From assembly GCA_965178125.1 (NCBI GenBank), contig OZ237758.1, positions 1 through 64,000 of the forward strand: DNA of 64,000 nucleotides, in the 5' to 3' direction. Within the stretch, counting starts at the first letter, position 1. Each line of letters begins with the position of its first letter. The DNA comes from Bilabrum cf. latius. Its lineage: Eukaryota. The notes under the pieces are model-generated. The model ran no database searches, was not told where the DNA came from, and saw nothing but the letters and a program-made list of their open reading frames with translations. Below are positions 2,335 through 63,646 of this stretch, piece by piece. Both the position numbers and the translations under genes were made by a program.

Positions 2335-2337
2335 AAA

Positions 2338-2834: not shown

Positions 2835-4418
2835 TCATGACGTCTTGCCCCGGTGCTGTTCGAGAATTACAATTTCGCACGACGTATGCCCAGCTTGTCG
2901 TGCAATTTGCTGTAGTCTCATAAGTCTGCCTCGGCTACATGCCAGCCTGCCCAGCTTTAGCCGCTTGGCAAGTTCCATCGGCCTCCCATCGGAGCAGCAC
3001 TTGCCTAGAAGACTTGCGTCCTTCTATGCATCAGTGGCTCGCCTCCAAAGCAACACATGCATGAGTAAGCTCCTTCTAGCAACCTCTATTGCAACTCCTG
3101 ACTGTCTCTACAACACATCGTCGCAGTCTCTGCGGTGGGGCTTTGGAGTCATCTCTAGCAACAGCTGCCTTTGCCGTTGATTGCACGGCAGTCGGTTTAG
3201 TCTGAGCTACTTGGAAAGCAAAGGTGCGCTGCCAAGTATACAGCAATGACATAGGACACTCCATTCAGGGATGAACGCTTGCCTATGCCTCCAAGCCATC
3301 CGGAATCGCAGAATAGCCTTGCATCTCTTCGTGCAATTCTCGACACGTCTAAGCCAGTGGTCGTACGGAGGCAGCCTGAGCTCTGCATAGCGGGCTACCT
3401 GCTCGTAAACACGGCGAGGAGGAATGCAATGGAGCGGGCGCTTATTCTGCAGCGGCATGTATTTGCTGTCCATTTGGGTGCGGCGGGTACCTGCTGCCTT
3501 TCTGGTTGTTCTGCGGACCAACCGTGAACCTGTGGATCTGGATCTTCGAGTCGATCCCCAATTCGAAAAAGGTTGTATTCTCAACTACCTAGTAATACCC
3601 CCATCCTCGTCATCAGGGTGCCTTCCAATTGTCATCAATGCCTTGATAACGCCTGCTCGCCGCTGCTTCACAGCCACCCTGAAAGCCTTCCAGTCGTCGG
3701 CCGATACGTCGATGGCTGATTCTCCCTCCAGTGCCAAGAACAGCAGCACTGAATTTGTGAACCCCTTTGCGCACGCAAATTGGAGCTCCTGTGCGCCCGG
3801 GCGAAACATCCAGTCATTCTTGCAATTTTGCATCTCCAGCAGATGGAGAAGCAAGTCGTCATTCCCACTCTTGCAGGCGCTTGTGAACATGAATCGAATG
3901 GAAGGGGTCATTGTCTGCGGCGTTCCAGTTATATAATCTAGAACAATGCATCGAACCTGATCGTCATACCCGAATCTCTTGCCTGCGATGCACTGCACCA
4001 TTCCAGGCAAGAATCGGCGGCGGCTGCCACGAAGAGAGAGTAGGAGGAGAATCAGCTCCGTGCGCTCCTAGGCAAATGCAATTCGTAGAGCACTATCCTC
4101 GTCGAAATGCACGTCGACCTGCCTCTCGTCGCTTATCTCAAGCAATGCCTTGAGGGTGGACAACGGCGAGCTGCGACGTCTGCATGCGGCTTCGAAGCAT
4201 TTCTGCGCCGCCGCTGGGGTTACGGCCGGCGATGGTAAACCCAAAAGTTCATGCATGGTCCATACCCTTCCAAGGTCACAAGCTATGCTAAACCCCTCAT
4301 TGATCGTCTAGCTGGCAGAATCGCGTGGAATGCCATGACCGCCACTCTTGAGAATAGCAAGAACTGGACCTGCGCTCTTGCTGCCGCAGGCGGCCAGAAA
4401 CTATTCATGCAGAGACAT
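2835..4418 (-). CDS. Ankyrin-like repeat protein (~527 aa with TAG=Gln, 7 in-frame TAG)
   Basis: One frame from ATG 4418 to TGA 2835 joins ORFs 4068-4256, 3585-4010 and 3207-3584; ANK-like DVHFDEDSALRIAFA*ERTELILLLL and DVSADDWKAFRVAVKQRRAGVIKALM. Confidence 0.7.
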
Positions 4419-4671
4419 AACACGAAAAAGTATTATTGCTACCTACTCTGTGCCCGGATTCGCGAAACGGACTGGAGAAGCGGAGTGAGGCAAATCCATG
4501 TCGAACGGCGCCGACCATGCAATGCAGCCTGGCAGTCCAGATCCGGAATTGAAATCACATGGCGAGGATCACTGAGGCAGGAACGTGCAGCCCAGTTGAG
4601 CGTGACATATCAAAAACATGCCTATTTCAAGGGTTAGCTGAAGCCGGAGCCTTTTGAACTACCCTCTGGAC

Positions 4672-6761
4672 ATGGCTGCGGACAACGTCCTCCGAGCTGC
4701 ATCCAACGGGTCTGTTGAGAAATTGAGGGCTGCGCTGTATGGAGCTGCTACTGCACTTGGTTCGTACTATCCTGGATAGGCGGTGGCTAATGGTTCCATT
4801 ATGGTGAGTCATTGCATCGTGACGATGCGTACCTGACGTCCAAGATGTCAAAGTTGCTCATTAGGTTACCACTGCTCATATTGGACCCACGCATACTAGT
4901 ACTTCACTCAGGTTGGAGTTCCGATTGTACAAGCAGCCGCACATGGTCACGTCGCTGCCTGCCGCTTATTGATTGAATGTGGCGCACACGTTGATCGAGC
5001 ACAAGAAGTGAGAGATGATGCACCATGGTGTTCGTGGCTTTTCTTCGTTTGTTCAGTCTCTAGTTGATGGTTCCCCCCGCTGGGATAGTGCTCGCATCAT
5101 TTTGATGTAGCGCAGTCTGGATGGACTGCCCTCATGTCTGCGGCTTGGAATGGACACTACCGCGTATGCAGACTTCTGCTTGACAGCGGCGCGGATCTCA
5201 CTCTGAAGAATAGAGCAGTGAGCAAACCAGCAATTTCGCAATAGCCATTTTCTACGGAGACCGAGTGCGATGTACGCGACGACTTTAGAAGCGCAGAACG
5301 GCATGACTGCGTTGGCTATGGCTGCGGCGCAAGGCCACGGAGCCACGGTTCGGTGCATCTTGGAATGCTCTTCAGGAACACTGTGTTTGCATTTGTAGGA
5401 CGAAGTGAGGAAGGGTCGGGGCGCAGCTGCCTTCATGGCGAGACCCTTTCTATCGCACGCGCCCACTGCAAAGCTGCAGTTGCTACGTCTCGCTTATTTC
5501 GCAGGAAAGGCGAACCCCTATTCACCATGCCGCCATGGGAGGTCACTGGAAGGTGTGCTACACGCTGATGCGGCATGGAGCTGATCCAGATGTGACTGAT
5601 ACTGTGAGACTACTTGTAAATGTGACCTAGACGATCTTGTGTACTATCCTGTCTCCCTGGGACACCGCTGGAAGCGTTTGATTCCCGATTTCGACTCCTA
5701 TTCATCATCGCTTGCAGGAGCCCCGCAGCCCCCTTGAATGGGCCGCCAGCGGGGGGCATCACATGGCTTGCCGGGTACTCCTGTAGGGCGGGGCCACGGC
5801 AGGCCTCATCCCAGGGGCAAACACTGGGCCACTGTGCCTAGCGGCGATGGAGGGGCATTACAAGGCCTGCAAAGCGTTGGTGCGTGGAGGAGCAGGTGTG
5901 AATGAAGGCAATCGAGTAAGACGGGCGGCGGGGTTGCAAGTGTGGCGGACTACTAAACCTGCTTGTATCTGCTAGCACTGCGCCACCCCTGGTCACACTG
6001 CCTCTGTGCCTGCATCATTCCCGCAGGGAGGCTGTCCCCCACTCTGCTGCAGCGGGAGCAACCTCAAGATCACTCGGTTCTTGCTATCCGAAGGGGCACT
6101 CCCCAATCCCTTGGCACCGGGCGGGTTCCACCCCCTCATAGGCCCAGCTGGATGTGGGGGTGCAGAGGCTTGTCTGGCGCTTCTGCAGGCAGGTGCGGAC
6201 CCGCTGTAGCCATTGTATCGAGCGAGAGATGATGAAGCCGACTTGTTGCCCGCCAGCAAAGCGGCAAGCTAGGGTCATGCAGCAGTGCTTGCGGTGCTGC
6301 TCGACCACAGGGCTGCAGGGGGGGATCCGGTCCACGCAAGGGTGCACATGGAACAGGTGGCACGGTGTGCCCAGCGGCCCCTGGGTCACAGTAATGCGGT
6401 AAAAAGGGCAATGTAGGAGTGTGGACTAGACGCAGGGAAGTGCGTTCAGCTACTGGGAGCATACGCTGAGGGTCAACAGAAGCATCTCATTCTTCGGCTG
6501 ACTAGGCACCGAGCCAAGAGCATCGTACTCTGGCGGAGGGCCGTGGAGGCCAAAAGGGACGCCTCTATGGTATTTCAGGCTGCAGCAGAGGGAAGGCCCA
6601 TGGAGCTAGCGAGGAGGTTGCGGTTGGGCAAGCTGGCGGGGGCGTTGCAGTCCAAGGGTGAAGTCGGTGGGGCTGGCCAGCAGATGTCGGCGTTGGAAGC
6701 TGCCATCATTGGTGGGCATGCGGAATGCGTGGCGCTGCTGCAAGAAGCAGGTCAAGGCTGA
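4672..6761 (+). CDS. Ankyrin-repeat protein, 7 exons (introns 4804-4911, 5008-5115, 5218-5296, 5405-5504, 5604-5717, 5916-6026)
   Basis: GTRAG...CAG introns, all phase 0; exons encode SGWTALMSAAWNGHYRVCRLLLDSGAD and RTPIHHAAMGGHWKVCYTLMRHGAD; 6 in-frame TAG; TGA stop. Confidence 0.85.
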
Positions 6762-7203
6762 CTTGCTCTCGCGATGAGATAATTTTCTACTCGTGTGCAT
6801 GCGAGAATATGCTGAGCACGAGCTGCCGTTTGCAACCTGCAACCGGTGGAGCCGGACCTTCTTGAAGATGAAGACAACTTGAAGGCACGAGTTCGCTTCC
6901 ATCACCCATTTCGAGAGGGCAAGCTCTCCGCACTTGCTAGCCATTCGTTGTGTACACGTGCTACGTATAGGCAAGCGCGCACGCGTATCTAGGCGGTTGT
7001 TGTGGCGCCAAATCATGTCCTCAACAGCAGCGGCAAGCGCGTCAGGTGCCCAATGTAGCGTCGCAAGTGCGTATCCCACCGAAAGTATAGCCACCAAACT
7101 GGCACCATGGGCTACGGGAGAGGGTACTTTAGGCTCGAATCCGTTGGAAGTGCTACACAGGGTTTCGCTGCCAGCTCCGCCCCGGTCAGTTTCGGTACCA
7201 GCC

Positions 7204-8970
7204 ATGACAGGGAGCACCGATGAGACTCATGGGGCTAAGCTTAGCAGTATTGGTATGTCGGGATCAAAGCGGAGGAAGGTCGAAACCACGGATGCGGGCG
7301 AAAAAGCAGCCGACGACACCACTCCGGGCCTTGCAGCTGCGGCGGCTGCCCGCTCTTCTGATGCCGTGGGCAAATTGTTCCACTGCGGTCCAGCTCTTAC
7401 GTTTTCAGTTGATGCAACTAGTGGGATGGCTCGGGCTACGACGCTGAGGATGTCGCACGGGATGGTGCCCACTCCGGTTTTCATGCCGGTTGGGACGCAA
7501 GGCACAGTTAAAGGGGTATCCCCTGCGGACCTGGAAGATCCAGCGCTTGATTGCCGCATTGCACTCGGTAATACATACCATCTTGGGACTAGGCCGGGGG
7601 AAGAGCGCATGAGAAGGTTGGGCGGGCTGCACAAGCTCATGGGCCTGCGGCCGGGCAGGTGCTTGCTCACAGATAGCGGCGGTTTTCAGATGGTATCGCT
7701 GTTGCATCTGGCTGAAATCACAGAGAAAGGCGTTGAGTTTAGGTCGCCGATGGATGGCTCCAAGATGCTCCTGACCCCGGAGCGCAGCATGCGGATCCAG
7801 AATGCCATCGGAGCAGACGTGCTCATGGCGCTGGACGACGTGGTGGACTCCAAGACAGTGGACGGGCCCAGATTCAAGGAGGCCTGCGAGCGAACCTTGC
7901 GCTGGATAGACCGGTGCATTGCAGCTCACCGCCGCACCGATACCTAGAACCTCTTCGGCATCGTGCAGGGTGGGCTTGACACGCGCCCAGGAGGTCTCAG
8001 GGACGACAGCTTACAGGGCATGATGCGGCGGGACCCATGCCTGCCTGGATATGCCATCGGTGGGCTAGCCGGGGGGGAGGATAAGCGCTTCTTCTGGAGG
8101 GTAGTGGCGCAGTGTTGTGCAGCCCTACCTCCGTGGAAGCCGCGCTACTTGATGGGGGTCGGCTTTCCGCTGGATCTAGTGGTGTGCACTGGGCTGGGCG
8201 TGGATATGTTTGATTGCGTGTTCCCCACTCGGACGGCTCGATTTGGATGCGCGCTTGTGCCGGGGGGATAGCTTCGCCTGCGCGCAGGCGGCAGCAAGAA
8301 AGGCTCGAGGAAAGGGGCGGCCAGCGGGTCAGGGTCCACTGGCAGTAGTGCCGCGTCCTCTCTTTCGCCTGCGGAGGACCCGCGCCCTATCGACGAGACT
8401 TGCCCGTGCCCTGCGTGCAAGAGGGGAAGAGAGGGCTTCACCAGCAGGGCGCGTCTGCATGCGCTGGCCAGGGGTCCCGACCCAGCTACTGCGGCTCAGT
8501 TGGTCACTCTGCACAACATCTGCTACATGCTGAGGCTCTCACGAGCGATGCGGAGGGCAGTGGTGCTGGACCAGTACCCACAGTTTGCACAAGCATTCTT
8601 GCGCGAGTACTACCCGCGAGCTGGGGCTGCTCCCTCGGACTCTGCAGGTCTGCCGAAAGCAGGAGGCTCCAAGGGCTCTGCAGCCGAGGGGGCAGTTCCC
8701 CTGTGGGCGAGGGAAGCGCTCACTGCCGCGGGAATCGCTGGTCCAGGGCGGGAGTGGCTGCTGGCATCTGAGGAGGAGAGCTGCCGGAGCGGGGATGGGG
8801 GCGCATAGGGCTCGTCTCCAGCTGGCGAGGAGGAGCAGTTCGCGGCTGCGATCCCATCGGTTTCGCTGGAGGCTCGCTTCGAGGGCTCCACGCTGGACTG
8901 GGGCCTGGGTGAGGAGGGGGACGCTGGCGAGGGTTGGGGGCAGGTCGAGCTTGGCGTGCCGGTGGCTTGA
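7204..8970 (+). CDS. QTRT1: Queuine tRNA-ribosyltransferase catalytic subunit (TGT)
   Basis: [61 protein letters not shown]...HN zinc site; TAG at 7945, 8269, 8806; TGA at 8968; start codon uncertain. Confidence 0.95.
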
Positions 8971-9088: not shown

Positions 9089-10738
9089 TCATTTCTTCTT
9101 GCCTTTTCCTTTCCCTTTCCCCTCGGCTTCCGTGGCGCCCTCTCCTTGGCCTCGCAGTTCAGCCAAGATTGCCGCCCGAGCCTTTGCGATCGAGGGACCC
9201 CAGCCGGTTGCCATCGAGTTCAGCGTATCCAAGACAGACGGCGGGCTGGGTTTTGCTTCGGCAGCTTCATCGGCTCGGGGACTTGTCTTGCCCTTGCCCT
9301 TCCCTTTACCCTTGCCGCCCTTCTTCGCACCTGCATCGTCCTGCTCGGCGATGGCTGCAGGCCGGGGGCCCGTCACGATGCTACCAACCATTTCTAGCGG
9401 TACGCGGGGAGGAAGGGGCAGGAACAGCGGGAACGCTTTACCCGCCCGCAGCAATGGGGCTCGAGGGTCTCTGGGCCCCACACCGCCACCGCCAGCAGTA
9501 CCTGGTCGTCTCGCTCCCCCAACCGAAGTAGCCGTGCCTGATCTGAATGAAACCCTTGACGTTGCACCCGCAGAGCGCTTGGAGGCCGCAGATGTAGCTG
9601 GTCTCCTCGGTGGAAGCACGTCTCGCGGCAGGACGGCGAGACAGTAGGTTGCTCCGGGGGACAGCACTTGACTAGCTGGAGAGTGCCTGATTGCGGCCCC
9701 ACTCAGACCGAGGGTGCGCACGGATGCATCGAGGGAAGGAAGAAGAGTAGCAGAGCTATGAGCTTTATCACCGGCCTCCGTCCCGTCATCCACAGCCTGA
9801 CCATTGCCGCCCACATCGCCTTTATCCTCACCCACTGCCAGGGGGCCAGCGGCTGCCACGCCCCCCTGCGCATCAGAGAGTAAGTCTTCAGGAACCCAGT
9901 CCAGGCCTGCCACACCGGAACTGAGCACTGTCTTGGTAGCTGGCTCCAACTCGCACAGATCAACACCTATCCAGTCCCGCCAAGCAGCAGAGATCTCGTG
10001 GCCCGCGGCTCGCAATGCTCCCACGCTGCCCTCGCGTGCAGGGAGGGTCACGTTGGCCTGCCCCCCTGCAACAGCCGCTTCGTTGCCAGGAACTGTTTCA
10101 CCGTCAGCCATTTTCAAAAGAGAGGCCGCAAAGTCTGAAGCCGAGATGCTTTTAGACTCCATGACGCCACTGGCAGAGCAGCCAGTTCCCGCTGCTTCCG
10201 TTGCCTACCTCGCGTCGTGCCTCAGCTGCAGGCTCGCCGCGTGTATCGCTCGTATTGACTATATTCGGTGATCTAACCCGGCCTAACGTCTCTCTAGACC
10301 CTCAATTAGTTGCTGAGTGTTGCTGATTGGAGAGGCCTCGGACTGCTCGGAGGGGCTGCTCACAGCCACGTTGTCACCTGCTGCTGCTTCGGCGTGCATG
10401 GCCTCATCGTCTGCGGCTAGCGCAAGCGACTAGTATTCAAGTTTCCGTGCATTGATTTCGCGCGCTGTCTCAGCGATATCAGATCGTAGCTCAGACTCCA
10501 ACCGTTTGCAAATGGCATCCATGTCCCGGAGGGCCGTCTCTTGGGCAGCTCGGAGCAGCTCGGCGCATGTCACGTTACTTGAAAATGGGCACCCTTTTCC
10601 AGTTGATTCATCTGCGGGCGCGATGTGGAAAGCTGATTCTGCTTGCAGAACTAACAGCACAAAAATGATGTAGAGATCATCCAGAAACATCGCTGGCTCA
10701 CCCGGACCGAACCGGATCCAAACTATTGGATCAGTCAT
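9089..10738 (-). CDS. Hypothetical protein with Lys/Gly-rich C-terminus
   Basis: ORFs 10430-10762 and 9089-10162 join in frame through 4 TAGs; ends KGKGKKK-TGA-TGA; a 5' intron is possible. Confidence 0.6.
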
Positions 10739-10913: not shown

Positions 10914-12770
10914 TCAGGACTTGGAACTGGATCGTGGCGACCTTACTCCTCCAAGAAGCGATACCGCAGCGGCTCCGAGCACTGCACCGGCTGCTACGCA
11001 GGCAACTGCGGCCAGCACTGAGAATGCCGGTGCAGGCGTCTTACCTCGATCTCCTTTCTCTTTCTAGGAGCCGGCAGCTTCCACTGCACTCTCTGGAACA
11101 TCGTTCTCCTACCCATCGGTGGCCCACCCGAGGCTGCGCTCCACAGCTCGCTCCCAGGTAGTAACCCTGGCCTGCCTCTCTTCCTCCTCCATGGCAGGCT
11201 TAAACTCGGCATCCAGCTCCCACTGGTCCCGCAAGTCGTCCAATGAGCTCCAGAAACCTACAGCCAAGCCGGCTGCATACGCTGCTCCCAGTGCTGTGGT
11301 TTCAATCACGGCAGGTCGCTGCACGCTACTGCCAAGTACATCGGCCTACATCTGCAGCATGGCTCCATTCACCGTCATGCCACCGTCCACACGCATAGTC
11401 AGGTCTGGGGCGCTGTCCGCCTTTTCCCCATTTCCAGTAGATGCAGCGCCGCCCTTAGCCTGCGCATCATCGGCCACATCCTGGGCCATCGCCACAGCGA
11501 GCTCCCTGGACTGGAAGCAAGTAGCCTCCAGCGCGGCCCTGCATATGTGTCCCCTGCAGCTGCCCTTGGTGAGACCCACGATGATCCCCCGTGCGTCGTC
11601 CCTCCACCTGGGAGCGAACAGGCCGCTAAAAGCAGGCACAAACACGAGGCCACCACTGTCCTCTACCTCCTCTGCCAGCTTTTGCACGTCGCTGCTGCTG
11701 GAGAAGAGCTTCAGGTTGTCCCGCATCCACTGCACAACGGAGCCGGCCTGGCTCACGCTCCCCTCCAGTCCAAATACCGCGGGCTCATCGCCGATCTTGT
11801 AAGCAACTGTTGTGAGCAGGCCGTGCGAGGACTTGACCCGCCTCTGGCCAGTGTTTCTGAGCATGAAGCAGCCCGTGCCGTACGTGTTCTTGGTTTGCCC
11901 CGGCTCGAAACACGCCTGCCCGAAGAGCGCCGCCTGCTGGTCCCCGAGTATGCCAGCCAGGGGCACGCCCTCCAGGAACTTGCTCGCCTTGGTGCCGTTC
12001 TGTCGCTCCTGCCTGCTCAGCCCCGCCTCGTCAGGACCCGTCCAGACGTCGCAGTCCGCGTACGTCTCTGAGGAGGAGACGATCTAGGGCAGCATGCGCA
12101 TGGGCACGTCGAAGTGCCCGCATAGGTCCTTTGCCCAATCTAGCGTATCTAGGTCCATCAGTAGTGTGCGGGATGCATTTGTCACATCTGTGATGTGCCG
12201 CCCCTTCCCTGGACCGCCAGTGAGGCACCAGGCGAGCCACGAATCGATCGTCCCAAATACTGCCTTGCCACCCTCGGCCTTTTCGCGTAGACCGTCCGTG
12301 TGATCAAGCAGCCACTTCAATTTGGGACCGCTGAAGTACGGAACAATGGGCAGCCCTGTCCTCGCTGCCAGCGAGTCGCGGCCACCAAGCTCCTTCGAAA
12401 CGGTCTGGCAGATCTTCGCAGCTCGCGTGTCCATCCACACGACAGCCCTTGTCAGCGGCTCTCCCGTGTCTGGGTTCCACACCAAGGTCGTCTCTCTCTA
12501 ATTTGTAATGCCGATTGCGGCAAGGTCGGCGGCAACAGCGTTTGCTTTTTGCATGCACGCAACCACAACTTGAAGGGTCCGCGCCAGGATCTCAAGTGCA
12601 TCGTGTTCAACGTGCCCCTCGGCGGTAGTGTGCTGCGTATGCTCCTCATGAGCAGATGCAACGATGCTACCTTTCTTGTCGAATAGAATGAACCTAGTCG
12701 AGGTAGTGCCCTGGTCAATTGATCCGACGTACGTCGACGTTGAGCCGGACCTTCGTGATGCAGCAGCCAT
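10914..12770 (-). CDS. GK: Glycerol kinase (FGGY family) with C-terminal hydrophobic tail
   Basis: [62 protein letters not shown] at 12498, 12084, 11346, 11109, 11064; TGA at 10914. Confidence 0.96.
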
Positions 12771-43769: not shown

Positions 43770-43789
43770 AGCGCTACAGTGCAGTGCAA
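43770..43789. promoter_or_regulatory. Candidate promoter motif AGCGCTACAGTGCAGTGCAA (copy 1)
   Basis: Identical 20-mer at 55933-55952; both copies lie in divergent intergenic regions just upstream of a minus-strand ATG. Confidence 0.35.
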
Positions 43790-44126
43790 GTCATGCATTG
43801 CACTGTAATGCTTTATTGGTCCACGGCGGCTTCAACAGAGCCCCGTTTGATAATCATGGAGTGCATCCATAGCCGAAGCGACTGCGGAGTAGGATCATGC
43901 GCAGTCACAGTTTACATTCCAAAAGGTACAAGCAGGGACGAAGATACGCTTCGTTTTGAATGGCCACTTGACACTATAGAATCTCCATCCACACAAGAGT
44001 GAGCCCACTGGCCAAATCCTTGGTCCGTGCTTTTCAACAATTAATATATGATTTGTCTATGTGGCGGTTCCATTGCTTGGTATTCGCAGGTTTACCGCAT
44101 ATCTTCAAGGCGTGTACAAGCTTACC

Positions 44127-44725: not shown

Positions 44726-44761
<36 letters not shown>

Positions 44762-45077
44762 TGGAGGGGCGGAAGACGACCTGGATGCGCTGGAGGCCAA
44801 GGTCAGCGAGGTACTTGCTCGGTGCTCGTCCTCGCAGCAGGAACACCTCCGGCAGGCGGCCCAGTCGAGCGCGCAGCAGCAGATCCTGGAAGTCATGCTC
44901 AAGAGCGGGGGCGAGGCGGCCGCGGCAGCCGCTGCTGACCCTCAGACTTGGGTTCGGCTCATGGAGAGTCCCCAGTGGAAGTTCCTCTACTCGCAGGCGC
45001 TGCTGGCTGAGCACGCGCAGATCGGCGCTGCAGGGTCCGACAATGCGGGCGCATCTGGTAGTGCAGGAGCATCTTGA
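44127..45077 (+). CDS. Hypothetical protein with CxxC...CxxC zinc-ribbon motif
   Basis: Open frame with CPMCG...RCSSCG and a poly-Ser tract; TGA stop. Confidence 0.55.
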
Positions 45078-45151
45078 TGCCGCCACCGGTGGATTCGGAT
45101 CTCGAACGCGCTGGACCCTCTAGGCCTATCCAGATACGCCCATCGCTCACG

Positions 45152-48100: not shown

Positions 48101-48244
48101 CGGCTGGCGTATGGCATGGCCGCGAGACACAGCTTCCCCCCCATGCACGTGGACGTGGACGGGGGCACGTACTTCCTTGGATCAATCCAGCCGCATGTGA
48201 ACATCTGCAAGGAGTGGTGGAGGCCGATGCAGGGCGTGCCATGA
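45152..48244 (+). CDS. STELLO/DUF288-like domain fused to a GT23 (alpha-1,6-fucosyltransferase)-like domain, ~1,030 aa
   Basis: KWAVITSI, WSVVVVGDLKTP, LPWNHYSRKMVAYLFAI, YDTDDDN, DGDPDVDAVFRLTR, FRVTDIWR; then QPADCRTAR...GLGSYLH and LVCGFSSNLCRLAY; 7 TAG. Confidence 0.75.
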
Positions 48245-53700: not shown

Positions 53701-55875
53701 TCACGATTCAATCTTGCTGGCAGTGCCCTCGGCCCCCTTTGAACCCCTCCGCTGCTCCCTCGCCATCGCGTCAAGCACAGCCTGCGGACCCCCTGCAACG
53801 CCCGTGCCACCCCTCACAGCCACCATGGCTGCTCCTGGCGGCAGCAGTGCCGCCCCCTCCCGGGCCCGCAGCTGCCCCCCCGCGGTGACGGGCCCCGCCC
53901 ACGTCCCCATCCCGCCGGGGGCGCGTCCTGCCCCCGCCACGCCCGCCGACTGCTCCTTGCGGAACTGCTCGCGGCGCCGCGCCCTGTCCTGTGCCCTGGC
54001 CCTGGCTGCCACCGCGTCCGAGAAATCCTCCCCACGTGCCCCAATGAGCACCTGCACGGGGGCCTGGTTGCAGCGGGACCGAAGCAGTGTGCCGGGGGCT
54101 GCGGGTGAGCCGGTACCTGTCGGTGGATCTTGACCCGGATTCGCCTCCCCTGCACTGCCCCCAGATGGACTGCCTGTGGGCCCATCATCATCTGCTCTAG
54201 TAGATGCACGCAATGCTCCCTCCCCCTCCCCCTCCCCCTCCCCCTCCTCCACGACCTCGTCCCCGCGGGGCACCGACACGGGCGTGTAGAACTGCCCGAT
54301 CTTGAGCCCCGTGAACACCGACACGCTCCCATCCAGCACTGCCTCGCTGATGGGCTGCGAACCCGCACGACCCCCCTCAACCTCTGACCCAGCGCTCTCC
54401 CCTGCCCCGGCCCCGGCCTGCACGCCCATCCCGGCCTGCTCCAGAGCGGCAGTGGCCCGCCGCGCTGCCTCCTGGGCGCGAGCTGCCCGCTTGCGAAGCA
54501 TCTCCACGCCGCCCCTGCCACTGCCACTACCGCCGCTACCACTGCTGCCGCCTCTCGCCTCTCCCTTGCTCTCGCCTGCGCCTTCCCCCCGCAGCCCTAC
54601 TTGCGGCAGCCCTGCATTCAGCCCTTGCAGCAGCTCGCACGCCTGGCACAGCCGCCGACTGGTCATGTACCCGCATCTCTCACATTGACGAGCCACAGTG
54701 GCAGATGCCCCGTACCCAGGGGGCTTGGTAGGCGCAGGTGCAGGTGCAGGCGCAGGTGCAGGTGCTGCACCGGAAGGAGGAGGAGAGCTAGACGAGGGCA
54801 GCGAGGGCAGGCCCGGTCCGGTACTGGGCCCTCCTGTTCCTCCTGCCACTGGATCCTCCTTCCGGCTGCATCTTCCCCCGCTTTGACACCCCTTTCCAGC
54901 ACCACACCCACCTTGCCCGCCGCAGCCCTTTTTGGACTTGCCCGCCGCTTTGTCTCTCCCCTTGCCCCTCTTGCCCCTCTGTCGACCTCCTCCCTTCGAC
55001 CCCGCAGAAGCCCCCTTCCCCTTCCCCTCGCCCCTCATGGGCACCAGAGGCACCATCTGCTCCGCTGCGTGGATGATGTCCAGCACCGCCGAGGGCCTCG
55101 CCGCCTCGAGGTCCTTGAGAAACTCACGGGCATACCCGCGGTAGGCGTTAGGGGAATACACGCACTCCGTGGAGAAGTAGTCCAGGTTCTTGTGGTAGGC
55201 GTACATCACAATTTCCTTTTCATACGCGTACTTGAACGGCTTGCAGCGCGGAAGGGATCCCCCATCGCCGGCCGTGGTGATGCTGACGCACCTGCGCAGC
55301 CGTGCCACGTCTCCGCGCAGGATGTTCATCAAAACTGTCTCCGCGACGTCGTCTGCATTATGGCCCGTAACTAGCTTGTCGGCCTTGATCAAGTCGGCAC
55401 CGCGATCTAAAGCTTGCCTCCGAAACACCCCGCACACGGTGCAGTTGGACTTTAGACCAATCACGGACACTACGCGATCCATAGTCCAGCCGAATAGGTC
55501 TTTGTACGACAATACTTGCAGTGGTAGCTAGTACTAATCCTTGTTCCTTCGAACTGTCTCCAGCGAGTCATCTCGATACCCAGTGATGCCTTCATCGATT
55601 GACAGCAGCACCAGGTCGAGCCCGTAGTCGTAGCGTCTGTTCAGCATTGTCAGCACGTGAGCCAGTACAGTTGAGTCTTTGCCCCCAGACGCGCCAATGG
55701 CAACGCGCTCGCCTCTTGTAAACAGCTTCTCCCGTACGATAGTGTCGTGCACTTCGTCTTCGAAGCATCGGAAAAAGCACTGCTTGCAGACCTTGTCTCC
55801 GTTCCTAGGTCGTTTGAGCACAGCCCTTGCAGAGCCACAAGCCACACATAGCCTAGATTTCGGGACAGCTTCCAT
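53701..55875 (-). CDS. CTU1: Cytoplasmic tRNA 2-thiolation protein 1 (Ncs6)
   Basis: [10 protein letters not shown]-loop, [57 protein letters not shown]...CQAC. Confidence 0.95.
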
Positions 55876-56027: not shown

Positions 56028-56954
56028 ATGAAAATTGGCCGATATAATAGTTGGAGGTTCAAGCAGCGGACATTCTCGGTCATTTTTGCCCTGAAGCGTG
56101 GGTTTTGCTTGACTTTGAAAAGGGCTGATGTGGCAAAGCAGAGCATCAAAGCATCGATCAAGAGCCGCATTAGCTTTAGAATCACCGACACACATTCCAC
56201 CCACATTAAAGGCCTTGCTGATGCCCTTGTCCGCCTCAATGAGTCTCCTATTGCGAAGCATTTGGCGACGGTGATACCAGGCCGGATAGCGCAAGTGACA
56301 GGCTCCGCCCAAGGCTTTCAGTGGCGAGTGAAGCGAAAGACAGACGCAGGGTATCAATGCTAGGCAAAGGATGGAGGAATGGTGCAAGATGTCTTCCTGG
56401 TGTTCCGAAGGCAAGGAAGAAACGAGGTGAGCGAGGGTGAGCTGCTTGCCGCACTCGAGTTCTCCGCTAGCGGGCCCCTGGGGGCAGCTGCCCGCCGGTA
56501 GCGCGCGAGGGAGCTGCGACTTGCAGAGGACCGCGCCAAGCAAGCCGCATTGCGCCTTGAGGCTGCGCGCCAGGGGGTGCGGCCCCTCTCAGGTGGAGGG
56601 CCTAGCGCCGGCAGTCCCGCAGCCAGGAGTACCTGTGCTACTAGTAGTGCCTGTGGGCGAGGAGCCGCTGGCAATCTGCCCCTAGCAGGTGACTCTGGCG
56701 TTAGTTTGTCTGCTAGTAGCAGTGGTAGGGTGCGGTGTCGGAGGGAGAGGGTAAGGGCAGCGGAGGCCAGGCGACAGGCGCGGGAGGATGCCCTGCGAGA
56801 GCTGGGCGAGGCCCGTGCGGAGGCCAGGCGGCGAGCTGCGAGAGCCAAGCGGCTGGCGGGCGGCCTGATGGACGGGTAGCCTGCCAGTGCCAGTTGGGGG
56901 GCGGTTCCGAGCAGGACGGAAGGGGCCAGAGGGAATGGCGGGGGCAGGTTGTGA
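56028..56954 (+). CDS. DUF2103-like protein
   Basis: THSTHIKGL...VIPGRI...GYQC*AKDGGMVQDVFL; 3 TAG; TGA at 56952. Confidence 0.6.
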
Positions 56955-57471: not shown

Positions 57472-59046
57472 ATGAGCGTAGGAGGAATAATTGCAGGCGT
57501 TTTCCTGGTCTTGCTAACCCCCGGGGTTCCTGCGGTTGTGATTTGGCTCAAGCACCACTATCCAGAGCGGACCTCATATTTAGAGCCATTGATTACATGC
57601 TATGTATGTGGGATAGCAATCGGAAACATCATATCGCTTGCCGGCGAGCATGGAGAAGGGACGCCGGTGTATACTGTGCTTGACCTGCTGTCGTCTGCCA
57701 CTGTAGCTCTTGGGCTCCCGATGCTACTTTTCTCGACGAATTTAGCGGCGCTTAGAGGCCCGGCAGTGTACGTAGCTATGTGCATGCTAATCGGAGCGAC
57801 CTGCGTGGTGTGTATGGCGTTTGCTGTGGAGGCCATGGTCGGCGGGCAGCTAGGCGACGATGCGCCCACCGTGGCCGGGTTAATGACCGCTGTCCTTACT
57901 GGAGGCACGCCTAACATGGCCGCTGTGCGGGCGGCACTCAGCATACCGGCCGAAACGTTCGTAGCTGTGCATACGGCCGAAACCGTGGTTGGCGCGCTGT
58001 ACGTGCTGCTGCTGGTGACCGTGGCCCGCCGCGGGCTGGGTCTATGCATGAGACACTACGAGACACCCAAGGCGACATGGTTCGGCGGGTACTGCGCGTG
58101 CATCATGCAAGAGGTGCCTGAGGAGGACAAGTCCGAGAGTGCTTCGGAGAAGGCGCATCAGGTGGGGGAGGAAGCCCAGCAGCAGGAATAGGGAAAGGTG
58201 CAAGGAGACGAGGGGCCCGTGGCGATGGGCCCTTCCGTGTCTGTGGCCCAGACCGCCCCCGGGCGCGACGATGGGGGGCCATACCACAGTCTGGGAGACT
58301 CGAAAGAGACAGGGGGCGTGGGCAACACCGGTGCCTCTGCCCAGGCAGGGGGCGAGGGCACAGAGGTGGTCGCCGAGGGAGGTGAGGGGGAGGGTGAGGG
58401 GGAGGGGGAGGGGGAGAACGCTGCCGGCCGCGCGGATGCGCTGGTGCGCGAGATGGAGCAGATGCAGGAGAACGGCGGGGTGGGCGCCTTCATGGAGGCG
58501 CTGGAGGAGAGGTACAGGTGCGGTCTGCTGTCCGCGCTTGGGCTGGCGGTGGTGATCGTGGGCGTGTCGTTCGCCTTGGGGCTTCCTGCCGGGGAGGGGT
58601 GGAGCACGGTGGTGACCATCGTGGCGATCAGCACGCTGGCGCTGGTGGCGAGCGCATTTCAGCAGGTGCGGGAGATCCAGCACACGTTCACTGTCGGTGA
58701 GTTCATCGTGCTCGGCTTCTGTTTCGCAGTGGGCGCGCTAGCGGACTTGAGTCAGCTGGTCAAGACGTCTCCTTACGTGTTCCTCTACGTGGCTGTCATG
58801 ATGGTGCTGGCCATCGGGCTGCACCTAGGGCTGGCCGCCCTGGCCGGTTTTGACGCAGACACGGCCATCATCAGCTCGGTGAGCAACGTGCTTTCCCCGC
58901 CGTTCGTGGGACTCGCATGTCGAGCCATCGGGAACCGGAAGCTCATGGCCCCAGGCGTGGCGGCCGGCCTGCTGGGATACGCCCTCGGGTCGTACCTGGG
59001 GATCGGGGTGTTCGCGGCGCTGGGAGGGGACCCCAGCGATGCATGA
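57472..59046 (+). CDS. Polytopic membrane protein, DUF819-like
   Basis: Two hydrophobic halves joined by an acidic loop containing TAG 58189 (AQQQE*GK); LTGGTPNMAAV, SSVSNVLSPPFV, GLLGYALGSYLG. Confidence 0.7.
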
Positions 59047-59264: not shown

Positions 59265-62200
59265 TCAGTCCTCAGCGTTTGAATCCTCGAACACCGCGAA
59301 TCCAGGCCCGCCCCCCCCGCCGCCCATGTGTCCTCCAGTCTCGTCCTCCTACCCCTCTCTCTCCACATCCCCATCTTCATCCCCATCCACTCCCCCCTCT
59401 CCCGCCCTGCCACCCGTCACCTCCTGCATGGCAGTCTCCAGACCACGGCCAGATGGCGGCACCAGGTAGCCTCCGTTCTCCTCCCCACGGGGCCGACCGC
59501 GCTGCTAGCCAGCAGGCCCGCCCCTCTTCTTGCCTCCACTGAAGCGCTCACGCCCATGTCCATGTCCATGCCCATGCTCGTGCTCGTGCTCCCACAGGTC
59601 CCGCACCTAGCTACCAGCCGGACAATCGCCAAACACCGGAATGTCGTCCCCGTCTACACGGCCGTCGGCCGATCCGCCCCCCAGCTCGGTACCAGGATCC
59701 GTGCGTGCATGCGTGCGCTGCGTCGGCTTGATCGTGGACAGGCCGAGTGGCCCGCGGCCCCGAAGCCCCGCCCCGCGGTGGCTAGCCGTGGCCCCAGCGC
59801 TCTAGATGGGGGAGAGCAGCGGAGAGCTCACACCCCCTGGCCCTGGCCCTGGCCCCGCGGATGCTCCCACACCGGACGCTCCCAGTCCCGATCCCTCGTC
59901 ACCGTCTGCAAACACGGTAAATCCAGCGCTCAAGCCGCCGGGCTGCCCGCCCCCTAGCGCCGATGGAGCTCGTCGGGGAGCAGCGGCGGCCGGTCTGCCT
60001 GGCCCATGCCCGATCCCCGACGCCTCCCCGAAAGCATCTGCCCCGAAAGCATCGGCCCCGAAAAGTGCATCCATGTCTTCCAGAGCGAGCTTGGTGTTGA
60101 TCGTCACGCCCTCGTCCCCACCGTGGCCAGCACCCGCACTAGGCACCTCTCCTGTGGCAGCAGCGCCCAGACCTGCACCAAGTCCAGATGCACCGGCAGA
60201 GGCCGTGTCGCCCAACAGACTCCCGTGGCCCCTGGCACGATCGCCACCAGTTCCAGCACCAGCATCGTTCTCATCCTCTTCCTCGCTCTCGCTGTCTCCG
60301 TGCAGCACAGATGCCTGCGCCGCCATGCGCAGCACGCCAGCACTTACGTCACTGCGGGCCGACCGCCCGTGGTCTCCGCCGCTGTCTCCCTCGCTGCCGC
60401 TGCTGCCCCTGCTTGACACGGACCTCGAGTCGTCCTCTTCGCTGTCCACCAGAGGGACGCCGCCGCCGCCCCCGTCTCCAGGCGCAAAGGACGAGGCCTC
60501 CTCCAGCCCGTGCACGTGACTGGCTCCCAGCCCACCATCCTCCATCCCGGGAGAGCCCCCTGGTGCGCTGCCCACAGACTGCTGGGACGGCCCTCCATCG
60601 CCATCTGCGCCTGCACGCCCAGCCCGCCGCCTGCCCTCGCCTCTACCCCCCACCTCGTCTAGCTCCCCCGCCTCGTCCAGCTCGTCCGCCCGCACAGTAA
60701 ACATGGCAGCCAGCGCCGCCAGGTCCTCCGGGTCCTCCCCGCCCGCACGCTCTCCCGCAGCCCGCCGCACCTGCGCCCGCCGCCGGGAGCTCGCCGCCCC
60801 CGACCTTGGAGGCCGCCTGCTGCTGGTTCGGCCGTAGACACCCGGAGTGCGCGCCGAAGTCGCGGGCGCCCGCCTGTTCTCTGCAGAGCTGCCCCCCGGT
60901 GCAGCGCCCCCTCCAGCACCAGCACCAGCACCCGCACCCGCACCCGTCCCTGCCCGCGGCCCGAACTGCCTGAGAGCGCGCCTCTCCGCGCGTGCCGCCT
61001 CCCGCGGGGCCACAGAGCGCATGGACTCGCCCGCGCCGAAGCTAAGCTTGCGCGTGACCTCCGGCGCGAGCGTGGACTGCCCTGCCGTCCTGGTAGCCCC
61101 GCTGGCCCCGAGTGCTGCGTGCAGGAGTGCCTCACCGAGCCCCGCTGTGGCGGTCACATCCCCCTGGCGGGGGCCGGCCCGGGAGGAAGCGCTCCGTGGG
61201 AGGGCGGGCGGCTCCACGCGGCGACCACCTCTGGTGATCTTGCCCACCTAGCTGCCTGCATCCGCCAGCAGCAGAGCGTGCATCGCTGCGGCCTCACCAA
61301 CACCCACCGTGGCCCCTGCATCTCCCTGTCCCTGATCATGCACCCCGGGTGACTCCGACTCGCTCACCCGAGCCATGCGCAGCCTGCGCTCCCTGGACCT
61401 GGCAGCCGCTGCACGCACCCTCTCGAGGCCCGACAGGGGCGACTGCTGTTGCTGCAGTGGTTGCACCTCCTTGCCGTCCTCGTCAACGTCCATCTCCATG
61501 TCATCGTCGTCCTCTTCCTCCTCGTCTGTCTCGCTCTTACCTACTTGCATCTCTCGTGCCCTGGTCGCTGCCCAGGCCCTCCTCCTGTCATCCAGCACGG
61601 CCCGTCTGACATCCCCGTGCCTCGCGAGCCACTCCCTGCCCCTGCTCTCCTCAAAGGACAGCGCCGCAGCACCACCTGCATCCCTGCCCTCGCCCGCCCA
61701 CTCCACCTAGCCGTCGGCCCCCACGGCCCAGCCCCCGCCCATGCTCCGCACAGGCCCCGCCAGCAGGGCAGGGTCACAGCCACGGGTGCGTCCCCTGGTC
61801 CACTTGGCATGCAGCTGCTTCAGCTCCGATCGAGTCCACGGCAAGAAAGCACCCTACTCCTGGCCTGCCGCCCCCGGCCCGCCGTGTCCATCTTCCTCTT
61901 CCTCTTCCTCTTCCTCTTCCTGGAACACCTCGAAGGCGGGCAGCGAGGGCCCCCCTGCAGCCAGCACCTTTGCCACCGGCGGCCTCCTGGCCAGGCCCCC
62001 CTCGTCCCAGCCAGTGACAGGGCCTTCGTTCTCCTTCCGACCCGCCCGCAGGCCGGGGGCCTGCGGCCACCTTGCGGCCTCCACCTACTCGTCCCCGCCA
62101 CGAGAGCTGCCCGCGCCGGAGGCAGGACCTGCAGCTGAGCCGCTGCCTTCGCCTGCCGCAGATCTACCCTAGGCTCCCCCCTCCTCCTCCTCCTCATCAT

Positions 62201-63646
62201 CTCCAAGGATCGCAAATCCAGGGTCCATCGAGCGCCCGCCAGGACCGGATGGCCCCGGCCTGGCCTGAGCCTGCCTCGCCCTGGACGGCCCACCGGCCCT
62301 CCTCCGCTGCGACCGCGAGTTGGACGACGAGGACGAGGACATGCCACGCGTGTGCCCTTGGCTAGTGCCATCATCATCCGCAAAAGGCACAAAGGACCCG
62401 CCCGCCGCCCCCTAGTCACCACCAGCCCCCGTGTCCCTCGGCTGCAGCGCCAGGCCCAGCCCCCGCCTGCCCCCCCGGCGGCTCGCTGCGGCGGCAGCCT
62501 GGGCTCGGTCCTGAGGCACTGCCAGACCGGTTGCAGAGCCAGATACGCCACCAACCCCCCTTGCATTCTCCCCCGGCTTCACCGCCAGCACCCCCAGCGG
62601 CCTCCTCCTCTTGGCCCCACCAGCACCAGCTGCAGCACCAGCAGAGGCACCCAGGGCTGCGTCCGGCCCCTCGCCCGCTGCCCCGAGTAGACCCATGCCC
62701 GCAGCAGGACCGTCACCAACATCGCCCGCAAGGTCCACGGCCCCATCTATACCGGCCTCAGCCCCCGACCCCTTGACCCCCGCTGCCTGCGCCTCGAGCC
62801 GCCCCAGGTCCACGTCCTTCCACTCCACCTCAACCTCCTTGGCAGAGGCCGCGGTAGAGTCCGAGGGGGAGGACCCTCGGGGACCGCTGGTACGAGCACC
62901 CTGCAGCGCCTTCCATTGCGCCACCATGCGGCGGCGGAACATGGCATGGCGAGCAGCGAGCCTCTCGCGTTTGTCCGTGCCGCGCCTGACGCCGTGGGAG
63001 TAGACTCGCTCAGCAACCGTAAATCGGCCATCCCGCTCTGCCACGTGCCCCCAAGCCATATAGAATAAGGCGCATCCCTCACCGATCCTCTTCGACCACA
63101 GGTATCGAAATGTTGGTGCCGGATCCTTCGCCATGTTTGCGAGGCGAATCCAGAGCGCAACGTAGCGCGTATCGTTCCGATACCTGGGATCCTTGGAAAA
63201 CTGGGAAGTCACCTCCTCTAAAGCGGTTTCAACAGGTGTTTTCACACCCCCTGACGGCAGGTGGTCCTCAATCCAACGGATGTAGTCGATCCACGACGAC
63301 AGAGGGTCCTCCGATTTGGCAGCCTTGGCAATCCTTTTCTTCCATGCTCTGCTCCAACAGTTTACAGTAGAATCGTTCGAAAACCAAAAATATGAATTTA
63401 TAAGGGCATTATAATAGGTAATTTGGCACAAATTGGCGATTGGGCTCTTTCTTTAGGGACAGGACCAGGTGTATTGTGCACCACTCACTGTTGCTTCTTC
63501 TTGAGCTCTTTGGCAGACAGCTCTTCGCGCCCTAGAACTCTATTCAGCCTTCGAACATTGCGACCACGTTTCAAGGGCTGCACGTTTTCTTTGCTCGTCT
63601 CCCACTCCGGGTCATTCACGCTTGCTTCGGCAGGACGGGCCGCCAT
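59265..63646 (-). CDS. Mad3/BubR1 (MadBub)-family spindle checkpoint protein, no kinase domain; intron 63349-63488
   Basis: WETSKENVQPLKRGR (KEN1), DPLSSWIDYIRW...YRNDTRYVALW (TPR), RKEN, FEVFQE, LSFEESR, TINTKLALEDMDALF; ~10 TAG; TGA at 59265. Confidence 0.87.

Follow-up and report, generated by a model that had tools for sequence, protein, structure and literature searches.

Gene content of a telomere-capped chromosome end

The stretch of DNA analysed here, 64,000 nucleotides in length and hereafter called the window, is a telomere-capped, GC-rich and gene-dense end of a eukaryotic chromosome with few, short GT-AG introns. The chromosome end itself (1..2600) consists of CCCTAA arrays that alternate with tandem repeats of 155 nt and give way to a 69-nt repeat, and GC content ranges over 0.52-0.66 (~62% overall). 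The gene models and the TAG codons that lie in frame within them are listed in Table 1. Methylcrotonoyl-CoA carboxylase (MCCase) alpha is a single spliced gene with its start at 28899 in our corrected model; the TAA that closes the open reading frame 28414..29214 was considered as a stop and rejected, as it belongs to a GTAAG 5' splice site. The arylsulfatase model is partial and takes in exons 2-4, but neither the exon upstream of them nor a piece of 13 nt, and the gene at 29063..29395 is presumably BolA-like, a label that comes from an earlier interpretation of this DNA made before any database search (the sequence-only reading) and from a motif. In glycerol kinase (GK), the TAGs at 11109 and 11064 fall within a C-terminal extension, and in the PH-domain protein the TAGs at residues 1522 and 1536 lie just upstream of the domain. 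The TGA of the gene at 44127..45077 overlaps the ATG of the STELLO gene by one base. ARAGORN and Rfam identified no tRNA or other Rfam family within the window, and an eRF1 gene is likewise absent from it.

Table 1. Repeats, gene models and introns of the window, with in-frame TAG codons and terminating codons
Feature	Coordinates	Strand	In-frame TAGs	Stop or further detail
CCCTAA arrays	1-89, 645-986, 1974-2334			Chromosome end
155-nt tandem repeats	100-604, 998-1913			Interleaved with CCCTAA arrays
69-nt repeat	2338-2600			After the CCCTAA/155-nt repeat block
Ankyrin-repeat gene, subtelomeric	2835..4499	-	8	TGA
Ankyrin-repeat paralogue	5763..6761	+	5	TGA
Queuine tRNA-ribosyltransferase (TGT/QTRT1)	7015..8970	+	7945, 8269, 8806	TGA
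Protein without Pfam family	9089..10738	-	4	TGA
Glycerol kinase (GK)	10914..12770	-	12498, 12084, 11346, 11109, 11064	TGA
Alanine aminotransferase (ALT)	13027..14601	+	13171, 13210	TGA at conserved C-terminus
2276-aa Pro/Ala/Lys/Ser tandem-repeat protein	15527..22357	-	13	TAGs all in non-repeat C-terminal third
Protein without family	22783..24471	+	6	
Zinc-type dehydrogenase or quinone reductase	24478..26109	+	0	TGA
MCCase alpha, spliced	26270..28899	-	28768, 27059, 26903, 26837	TGA
MCCase alpha intron	28323-28417	-		GT-AG
BolA-like gene (putative)	29063..29395	+	29102, 29339	TGA
mARC/MOSC protein	29477..31138	-	5, including 30821	TGA
Arylsulfatase exons 2-4	31590..33465	+	31689, 32932	TGA
Arylsulfatase introns	31967-32114, 32541-32642	+		
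RsmI-like methylase	33590..34498	-	34493	TAA
Protein with weak 2OG-Fe(II) oxygenase match	34642..35640	+	4	Ends in TAG-TAA tandem
Methyltransferase (Methyltransf_23/12)	35709..37418	+	3	
Protein without clear family	37474..38406	-	2	
Dymeclin	38568..42044	+	1 (39567)	
DnaJ and Myb/SANT protein	42158..43798	-	4, including 43571 in J-domain	
Protein without family	44127..45077	+	0	GT-AG intron upstream at 43999-44089
STELLO-domain glycosyltransferase	45077..48244	+	7, including 45938	
1697-aa protein, C-terminal PH domain (aa 1570-1685)	48368..53461	-	11	
Cytoplasmic tRNA 2-thiolation protein 1 (CTU1)	53701..55875	-	55534, 55528	
DUF2103 protein	56028..56954	+	3	
DUF819 membrane protein	57472..59046	+	1	
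Mad3/BUB1-homology protein	59265..63134	-	10	

TAG within reading frames and the codons that terminate

The 25 ORF rows, which total 17,239 codons, contain 105 TAG codons in frame and no in-frame TAA or TGA, the two zeros being partly a matter of construction since the ORFs were defined with TAA and TGA as stops. In frame +1 the counts are 131 (TAG), 49 (TAA) and 224 (TGA), and in frame +2 they are 116, 49 and 281. With MCCase alpha merged and the BolA-like gene and arylsulfatase exons 2-4 added, the corrected models contain 108 TAGs in 26 genes, at least one being present in 24 of these. ORF statistics single out TAG as the sense codon: there are five non-overlapping ORFs of 500 aa or more under the standard code and 19 if TAG is sense, against five and ten if TAA or TGA, respectively, is read as sense, and the corresponding ORF cover of 61.2 kb is 0.68, 0.90, 0.72 and 0.84. 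Pfam domains and homologue alignments continue unbroken across TAGs (for example FGGY_N/C, TGT, PP-loop, MOSC_N and DnaJ), and neither TAA nor TGA interrupts a gene for which homologues are known. TGA closes 22 of the 24 complete models and TAA the other two; the BolA-like gene and the sulfatase also stop at TGA, which is found at conserved C-termini, for example that of ALT. The sequence-only reading had counted about 100 in-frame TAGs in 22 of 27 gene models and had claimed that full-length proteins ending at TGA or TAA are restored when these are read through; the observation is confirmed, and the seven sites that it quoted (7945, 11346, 12498, 29339, 30821, 43571 and 45938) are all in-frame TAGs.

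In-frame TAGs are also present in relatives. Two metagenome loci, L001 and L002 (GC 0.54), are syntenic with the window; L001 has 12 in-frame TAGs but neither TAA nor TGA in frame, and the L002 homologue of the TAG-free gene at 44127..45077 carries four TAGs. Loci L003-L011, at 31-40% identity, contain no in-frame TAGs. Among much closer sequences, P0260 and P0284, two database ORFs of 93% and 95% identity, stop precisely one residue short of the TAGs at residues 311 and 598 of the window TGT, as they would if produced by a standard-code gene caller. Since the TAG code is common to at least one more distant relative (L001/L002) and to relatives that are 93-95% identical, it is a trait of a clade and not of one strain.

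Does TAG nonetheless still terminate translation in some places? In context-dependent codes, known from Condylostoma and, for UAA, from Blastocrithidia, a codon can carry two meanings, and here UAG would specify Gln inside genes but act as a terminator near some 3' ends. Certain TAGs are placed as this would predict: the one at residue 554 of GK lies close to the end of the homologues, 109 of 120 of which are gapped in this column, that at residue 518 of the mARC protein is 12 residues past the end of the MOSC match (aa 506), and one gene ends in a TAG-TAA tandem. The tails that follow the last TAG, at 0-114 codons, would also fit a random distance to the next TGA or TAA, and some score weakly as coding (-0.06 in the first ankyrin-repeat gene, Ank1, and -0.07 in the DUF2103 gene). 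Pooled, however, these tails resemble coding sequence, with a score of 0.185 that is close to the internal coding control (0.201, 95% range 0.104-0.302) and far from the -0.175 obtained past real stops. Nor do TAGs accumulate towards gene ends, the last TAG being within 60 codons of the end in seven of 21 genes where a uniform distribution predicts ~7.3 (a hand calculation), and TGA remains the stop in 22 of 24 complete models. From the positions in GK and mARC and the poorly scoring tails, occasional termination at TAG is possible, but a double meaning of UAG in general is unlikely.

A second alternative, that UAA and UAG both encode Gln (NCBI table 6) and that TAA is rare only through the GC-richness of the genome, is more improbable still. 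TAA closes only two genes, in which read-through would extend the protein by no more than 46 and 24 codons to the next TGA; TAA is also rare overall, with 466 occurrences against 998 for TAG on both strands. Yet the ratio of CAA to CAG, 136:504, predicts ~28 TAAs for 105 TAGs, and none is in frame in 17,239 codons, subject to the ORF definition given above. TAA interrupts none of the genes that have homologues, its reading as sense gives no more long ORFs than the standard code does, and L001 repeats the pattern. As a UAA sense codon was encountered neither in the window nor in L001, we reject a table 6 code; UAA thus still terminates, although its two occurrences as a stop are a small sample.

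The residue at TAG positions and evidence from RNA

Homologues identify the residue most clearly where the TAG falls in a near-invariant column. In GK, the TAGs at 12498 (aa 91) and 11346 (aa 475) each stand opposite Gln in 120 of 120 homologues, as does the CTU1 TAG at 55534 (aa 114) in 116 of 120. For the TGT TAG at 7945 (aa 311), Gln makes up 122 of 142 residues (150 matches), and opposite the mARC TAG at 30821 (aa 106) it occurs in all three of the solved chains found, which are all human mARC1 constructs. Over the seven alignable TAG columns, log10 odds against background are +7.2 for Gln, -4.9 for Glu and -6.0 for Arg, so that Gln is ahead of the next residue, Glu, by ~12 log10 units. 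The sequence-only reading had placed Gln at the GK, TGT and mARC sites, which the alignments confirm.

Other columns are variable, and in these the case for a residue other than Gln (Glu, Leu, Ser, Lys or pyrrolysine, for example) can be made. Solved homologues have Glu in two of two cases opposite the ALT TAG at 13171 (aa 49), and Arg and Glu opposite that at 13210 (aa 62); at 12084 (aa 229) in GK, the 120 homologues include 56 with Glu, 20 with Arg and 20 with Gln. The column of the TGT TAG at 8269 (aa 419) has Arg in 35, Gln in 14 and Lys in 13, that of the CTU1 TAG at 55528 (aa 116) has Gly in 55, Asp in 25 and Gln in 11, and the residue of relative P0241 opposite the Dymeclin TAG, matched by eye, appears to be Leu. 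Against this stand the four near-invariant Gln columns (two in GK, one each in CTU1 and TGT), the lead of Gln over Glu, and the relatives, in which eight of 14 TAGs that align to a residue of the window are opposite Gln. Glu, Leu and Ser were accordingly rejected, Leu and Ser being many log units worse, and a meaning other than Gln is highly improbable. In the reverse direction, TAGs of the window are opposite Gln in L001 at only one of six aligned sites; the STELLO TAG at 45938 is opposite Gln in L001. Read as Gln, TAG accounts for ~14% of Gln codons (105, beside 504 CAG and 136 CAA).

Contigs from four sequencing runs cover part of the window. Those of runs X5, X6 and X7 skip five GT-AG introns, all of which are retained in the contigs of X1, and they are therefore RNA, an assignment made solely from the spliced contigs; none of the matching runs listed is recorded as RNA. 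X5-X7 come from two studies, both different from that of X1, and across 19.9 kb, four runs and three studies there are only two differences, neither of them at a TAG. Of the 32 model TAGs in 26200-46100, at least 20 lie inside the listed RNA pieces, with no other letter at any of them, and ten of those 20 are covered in both studies; the remaining 12 lie outside these pieces, which are silent on them. Retention of UAG in mRNA, proposed as a check by the sequence-only reading, is thus seen at the covered sites. Because TAG is kept in spliced RNA without letter differences, editing and sequencing error are ruled out at these sites, with the caveat that the evidence consists of assembled contigs, which drop rare variants. 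The reading that denies the TAGs a part in translation, and takes them to reflect base-call or assembly errors, pseudogenes or editing to CAG in the mRNA, found no support and is barely credible: we reject it on the spliced contigs that still carry TAG, on the identity of four runs from three studies at covered TAGs, on the TAGs of divergent and near-identical relatives, and because pseudogenes would require 24 of 26 genes to be broken by TAG alone.

At the level of genomic and RNA sequence, we show here that TAG is read through in real, expressed and spliced genes, and that neither TAA nor TGA serves as a sense codon. On four independent lines of evidence (the Gln columns, the ORF statistics, the spliced RNA contigs, and the exchange of TAG with Gln codons in a relative), UAG is a sense codon, most likely for Gln, in a non-ciliate genome with TGA and TAA as stops. 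We consider it very probable that UAG is an ordinary Gln codon, and that termination is mostly at UGA and less often at UAA, which makes the nuclear code that of NCBI table 15. By analogy with other UAG-only lineages, a dedicated tRNA-Gln with the anticodon CUA would read UAG but not UAA, and an eRF1 without recognition of UAG would have kept that of UAA and UGA.

Host lineage and comparison with other nuclear codes

The sequence-only reading described the locus as GC-rich, telomeric, gene-dense and unlike that of a ciliate, which our analysis upholds, and held that the taxon could not be fixed; phylogenies of GK and TGT narrow this a little. In the GK tree, the window sequence groups with P0003, P0008 and P0066 (support 0.98). 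P0003 comes from MMETSP1348, and we take MMETSP1346-1349 to be one strain. MMETSP1349 is given as Aplanochytrium stocchinoi (PMC9983209). The best non-self TGT match, P0261, belongs to the same cluster as a transcript of MMETSP0960, and both are within an 11-member clade (support 0.93). MMETSP0960 is presumably Aurantiochytrium limacinum; the taxid in the transcript header, 87120, resolves to a fungus, and 87102 is that of A. limacinum. CTU1 is so conserved that it gives no placement, two TAG-free stretches, read by table 11, matched named families in the ESM Atlas but were of no help with taxonomy, and a Dymeclin word search gave three matches among 8000 candidates, swamped by low-complexity words. 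The closest named homologues and the two trees weakly favour a host clade that is probably allied with Labyrinthulomycetes (stramenopiles).

In the literature searched, which took in few subscription journals, we found no nuclear UAG reassignment for labyrinthulomycetes, thraustochytrids or stramenopiles. For the probable lineage the code thus appears to be new to the literature, and to this extent the earlier suggestion that it may be unreported stands. The only code changes found for the group in the literature searched are those of Labyrinthulea mitochondria, in which UUA is a stop (PMC12574857, PMC12152300). These share the probable host lineage with the window but are mitochondrial, whereas the change described here is nuclear, being on a telomere-capped chromosome with spliceosomal introns and cytosolic genes.

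How does this code compare with those known from other nuclei? Table 6 codes, in which UAR is Gln, are used by many ciliates, Ulvophyceae, diplomonads (Hexamita), oxymonads (Streblomastix) and the aphelid Amoeboaphelidium. They have in common with the window the capture of a stop codon for Gln, presumably via a mutated tRNA-Gln, but differ in that TAA is not sense here (none in frame in 17,239 codons, partly by ORF definition, and no ORF gain). Like the ambiguous codes of Condylostoma, karyorelicts and Blastocrithidia, the window has in-frame stop codons in conserved genes; unlike them, a single codon is affected, a dedicated TGA/TAA stop is kept, and the pooled sequence beyond the last TAG looks coding. 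Code 15 assigns TAG to Gln (PMC9523058), and a further source lists UAG-only Gln nuclear codes in the fornicate Iotanema spirale, the ciliate Protocruzia tuzeti and two phyllopharyngean ciliate lineages (PMC11687900). The window resembles these table 15 codes in that UAG is Gln and UAA still a stop, but it represents an ordinary chromosome that has spliceosomal introns, a GC content of ~62% and a TTAGGG-type telomere and that encodes enzymes of mitochondrial type (MCCase, and ALT, which is extended at its N-terminus). Its closest homologues with a name come from labyrinthulomycetes rather than from ciliates or fornicates. Ciliate telomeres differ from the TTAGGG type, and Iotanema is an anaerobe. 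Other UAG-only reassignments named in the same source are those of Rhizaria sp. exLh (Leu), Scotinosphaera (Ser) and some phyllopharyngeans (Leu) (PMC11687900); in these, too, UAG is uncoupled from UAA, but the residue differs from the Gln of the window.

Taken further, the window may hold the first stramenopile nuclear stop-codon reassignment, an independent origin of UAG as Gln, with UAA still a stop, in a GC-rich and intron-poor clade that is related to labyrinthulomycetes and comprises two or more well-separated species; in that case, translation would now pass through some former TAG stops and give proteins new C-terminal tails, such as the hydrophobic tail of GK. We offer this fuller scenario tentatively, and would put its chances slightly below even.

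Reassignments in nuclear codes are uncommon, and those in which UAG and UAA part ways even more so, only a handful being listed (PMC11687900). A new, independent case would be a data point on how often and by what route UAG is captured for Gln, and a GC-rich genome of telomere-to-telomere type outside ciliates and excavates would test whether codon capture needs low TAG usage or GC pressure. It would also provide a compact genome for the study of tRNA-Gln(CUA) and eRF1 changes. More immediately, standard-code gene callers cut proteins at every TAG, as in P0260 and P0284, so existing annotations and metagenomic and metatranscriptomic protein sets for this clade are fragmented.

TAG codons and gene organisation

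The sequence-only reading put the number of in-frame TAGs at about 100; counting gives 105 across 25 open reading frame (ORF) rows and 17,239 codons, and each of the seven sites it quoted (7945, 11346, 12498, 29339, 30821, 43571 and 45938) is an in-frame TAG. Modelling methylcrotonoyl-CoA carboxylase (MCCase) alpha as a single spliced gene that begins at 28899, and adding a BolA-like gene and sulfatase exons 2-4, brings the corrected total to 108 TAGs over 26 genes, with one or more TAGs in 24 of them. TAG is similarly frequent in frame (105) and out of frame (131 and 116); TAA and TGA both number 0 in frame, against 49/49 and 224/281 respectively out of frame. Because TAA and TGA were the stops used to define the ORFs, a control was run with other codes. 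The standard code yields 5 non-overlapping ORFs of 500 aa or more, against 19 with TAG as sense, 5 with TAA as sense and 10 with TGA as sense, the corresponding ORF cover being 0.68, 0.90, 0.72 and 0.84. The gain is specific to TAG.

Read in this way, the window carries about 26 tightly packed genes on both strands from 2.8 kb on. A clear Pfam family can be assigned to many of them: queuine tRNA-ribosyltransferase (TGT), glycerol kinase (GK), alanine aminotransferase (ALT), MCCase alpha, mARC/MOSC, arylsulfatase, an RsmI-like methylase, a methyltransferase, dymeclin, DnaJ+Myb, STELLO, a PH-domain protein, CTU1, DUF2103, DUF819 and Mad3/BUB1. Neither tRNAs (ARAGORN) nor Rfam families at gathering score were found in the 64-kb window. 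The CCCTAA arrays at its start (see table) indicate a chromosome end whose telomere repeats are of the TTAGGG type; the arrays are separated by two blocks of related 155-nt tandem repeats and followed by a 69-nt repeat (1-2600). The interstitial arrays in this region may be a genuine feature of the subtelomere or a product of the assembly. GC is 0.52 close to the chromosome end and 0.57-0.66 farther inside. The subtelomeric ankyrin-repeat paralogues, which have a conserved C-terminal motif in common, are denser in TAG than any other genes of the window and have the lowest coding score downstream of the last TAG.

Features of the window and their coordinates
Feature	Position	Strand	Observation
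CCCTAA arrays	1-89; 645-986; 1974-2334		15, 57 and 60 copies
Ankyrin-repeat paralogue	2835-4499	-	8 TAGs in 554 codons
Ankyrin-repeat fragment	5134-5568	+	
Ankyrin-repeat paralogue	5763-6761	+	5 TAGs in 332 codons
GK extension (aa 554-618)	10914-11111	-	64 codons; hydrophobic Ala/Val/Gly stretch at its end
Repeat protein	15527-22357	-	2276 aa; ~14-residue and ~16-residue Pro/Ala/Ser/Lys tandem repeats; first 1342 codons (repeats) TAG-free, 13 TAGs in non-repeat C-terminal third
Stretches skipped in X5, X6 and X7 contigs	28323-28417; 31967-32114; 32541-32642; 43999-44089		
BolA-like gene	29063-29395		
Sulfatase joint	31358/31590	+	joint in X5, X6 and X7 contigs; 13 extra letters inserted (X5, X6)
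Convergent sulfatase (+) and RsmI-like (-) genes	33465-33594		
Sequence difference	34268		1-nt gap (one X7 contig, depth 2.7)
Sequence difference	42285		C>T (X1)
TGATG	45075-45079		Last base of the TGA stop of gene 44127-45077 also in STELLO ATG

The residue encoded by TAG

Glutamine had been proposed as the residue, and conserved Gln columns in three proteins bear this out. The GK columns at aa 91 and aa 475 are Q in 120/120 homologues each, and CTU1 aa 114 is Q in 116 of its 120 homologues; for TGT, an exhaustive HMMER search supplied 150 representatives, and 122 of the 142 residues at aa 311 are Q. Mammalian QTRT1 structures likewise have Q at the TGT aa 311 site, and the mARC TAG at aa 106 lies opposite Q of human mARC1. 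Other columns are mixed: GK aa 229 (E56/R20/Q20/A14), CTU1 aa 116 (G55/D25/Q11/E10), TGT aa 419 (R35/Q14/K13, with N in QTRT1) and sulfatase exon 2 aa 34 (N, Q or D). Two more GK TAGs fall within a C-terminal extension. ALT runs counter to Gln, its aa 49 TAG being opposite E in both solved homologues and its aa 62 TAG opposite R and E. A Codetta-like sum over the seven alignable TAG columns gives log10 odds against background of +7.2 for Q, compared with -4.9 for E, -6.0 for R and -6.7 for K.

UAG is decoded as Gln, and UAA and UGA are not. The CAA:CAG ratio (136:504) predicts about 28 TAAs per 105 TAGs (hand arithmetic), and none occurs in frame in the 17,239 codons. As had been read from the sequence, models end at TGA (22) or TAA (2). 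The two TAA-ending genes, the RsmI-like gene and a 2OG-like gene ending TAG-TAA, gain only 46 and 24 codons on read-through, and the TGA of ALT falls at the conserved C-terminus. It is highly probable that TAG is a sense codon for Gln and that translation stops at TGA and TAA. By analogy with established UAG-only codes, a tRNA-Gln(CUA) would pair with UAG and not with UAA, and eRF1 would have lost recognition of UAG.

Spliced transcripts and possible stop function

The stretch is present in sequencing runs of several organism labels and studies. We compared 26200-46100 with contigs of X1 (from a study shared with X2-X4), X5 and X6 (study P2) and X7 (study P3). The contigs of X1 follow the window without a break. 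The joints in X5, X6 and X7 are all GT..AG on the gene strand, so the contigs of these three runs represent spliced RNA. Alignment to solved MCCase alpha chains shows that the protein changes frame and continues some 95 nt further on; the TAA ending ORF 28414..29214 is not a stop, the ORF having entered a GTAAG splice site. Arylsulfatase (+) is likewise in several pieces, and the inserted 13 letters would suit a micro-exon that completes the sulfatase motif conserved at the N-terminus. The X6 sulfatase contig reaches 33594, beyond the RsmI-like TAA (33590-33592), so the 3' ends of the transcripts overlap.

Retention of UAG in mRNA, a check that the earlier reading had called for, is borne out by the spliced contigs. 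Among the RNA pieces listed, at least 20 of the 32 model TAGs in 26200-46100 are covered (the MCCase exon 1 TAG counted being 28768), at least 10 of them by both RNA studies, and no other letter occurs there. Two differences are reported over 19.9 kb in the four runs, and TAG sites are unaffected. At the covered sites, UAG-to-CAG editing that is complete or in the majority is ruled out; partial editing may occur and is compatible with these contigs, which drop rare variants.

Could TAG also serve as a stop? Codon usage was scored over the 525 codons after the last TAG in 11 genes: the pooled tails score 0.185, against 0.201 for size-matched internal coding sequence (95% range 0.104-0.302) and -0.175 for 40 in-frame codons beyond each real stop. 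The last TAG lies within 60 codons of the end in 7 of 21 genes, where about 7.3 would be expected if placement were uniform (hand calculation). Tail scores and placement indicate that TAG acts as an ordinary sense codon. Two TAGs may be former stops now read through, or cases of rare dual use: GK aa 554 lies approximately at the homologue end, 109 of 120 homologues having ended by there, and mARC aa 518 lies 12 residues beyond the end of the MOSC match. Read-through of a former stop may have given GK a tail-anchor-like end.

Placement, known codes and relatives

Ciliate telomere repeats differ from the TTAGGG type; telomere type and an ordinary long chromosome speak against a ciliate, in line with the earlier view. 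A GK FastTree phylogeny of 120 hits and the query places the latter with P0003, P0008 and P0066 (support 0.98). P0003 is an MMETSP1348 transcript, and we take MMETSP1346-1349 to be one strain. A passage in PMC9983209 gives MMETSP1349 as Aplanochytrium stocchinoi. The top non-self TGT match, P0261 (57% identity), clusters with an MMETSP0960 transcript, and lies with the query inside an 11-member clade (support 0.93). MMETSP0960 is presumably Aurantiochytrium limacinum; the header of P0410 from that set gives TAXON_ID 87120 (Rhizopogon burlinghamii, a basidiomycete fungus), probably through transposed digits in the original metadata, 87102 being A. limacinum. CTU1 is uninformative. Two genes thus point to Labyrinthulomycetes, and at 54-57% identity with few named homologues such an affinity is marginally favoured; the earlier statement that the taxon cannot be fixed gives way to this weak narrowing only.

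The code corresponds to NCBI table 15. Passages of PMC11687900 describe UAG alone as Gln in Iotanema spirale, Protocruzia tuzeti and two phyllopharyngean lineages, UAG as Leu in a rhizarian and as Ser in Scotinosphaera, and UAR as Gln in ciliates, ulvophytes, Hexamita, Streblomastix and Amoeboaphelidium. For Labyrinthulea, the only code changes encountered in the portions of literature covered are mitochondrial. In the full-text literature covered, which spans few subscription journals, no report of a reassigned nuclear UAG was found for labyrinthulomycetes, thraustochytrids or stramenopiles. The UAG = Gln nuclear code here is real and well supported; the suggestion that it may be unreported agrees with this search, and we put the chance that it is unreported in the probable lineage at about even.

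Scanning metagenome contigs with the STELLO protein gave 11 loci. Two of these, L001 and L002 (GC 0.54 and 0.53; identity 51-59%), show synteny with the window, having a homologue of gene 44127-45077 upstream and an intron in the STELLO gene; a gap separates the two genes there, unlike the overlap in the window. L001 contains 12 in-frame TAGs and no in-frame TAA or TGA; no in-frame TAG was found in L003-L011 (31-40% identity, GC 0.22-0.49). Fourteen relative TAGs align to a window residue, namely Q (8), L (2), G (2), R (1) and A (1), which at about 50% identity is a strong excess of Gln; in the opposite comparison, the relative has Q, G, R, A, V and A where the window has TAG. Two database ORFs, P0260 (93% identical) and P0284 (95%), stop at residues 310 and 597, one residue ahead of the window TGT TAGs at 311 and 598, as expected if a close relative has these TAGs too and its genes were called with the standard code; P0241, a dymeclin, is 94% identical. 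The TAGs of L001 and the ends of P0260 and P0284 indicate a code common to a clade. As these three database proteins illustrate, public protein sets contain the clade's proteins as fragments cut at TAG by standard-code calling, so fragmentation probably affects its annotations as a whole.
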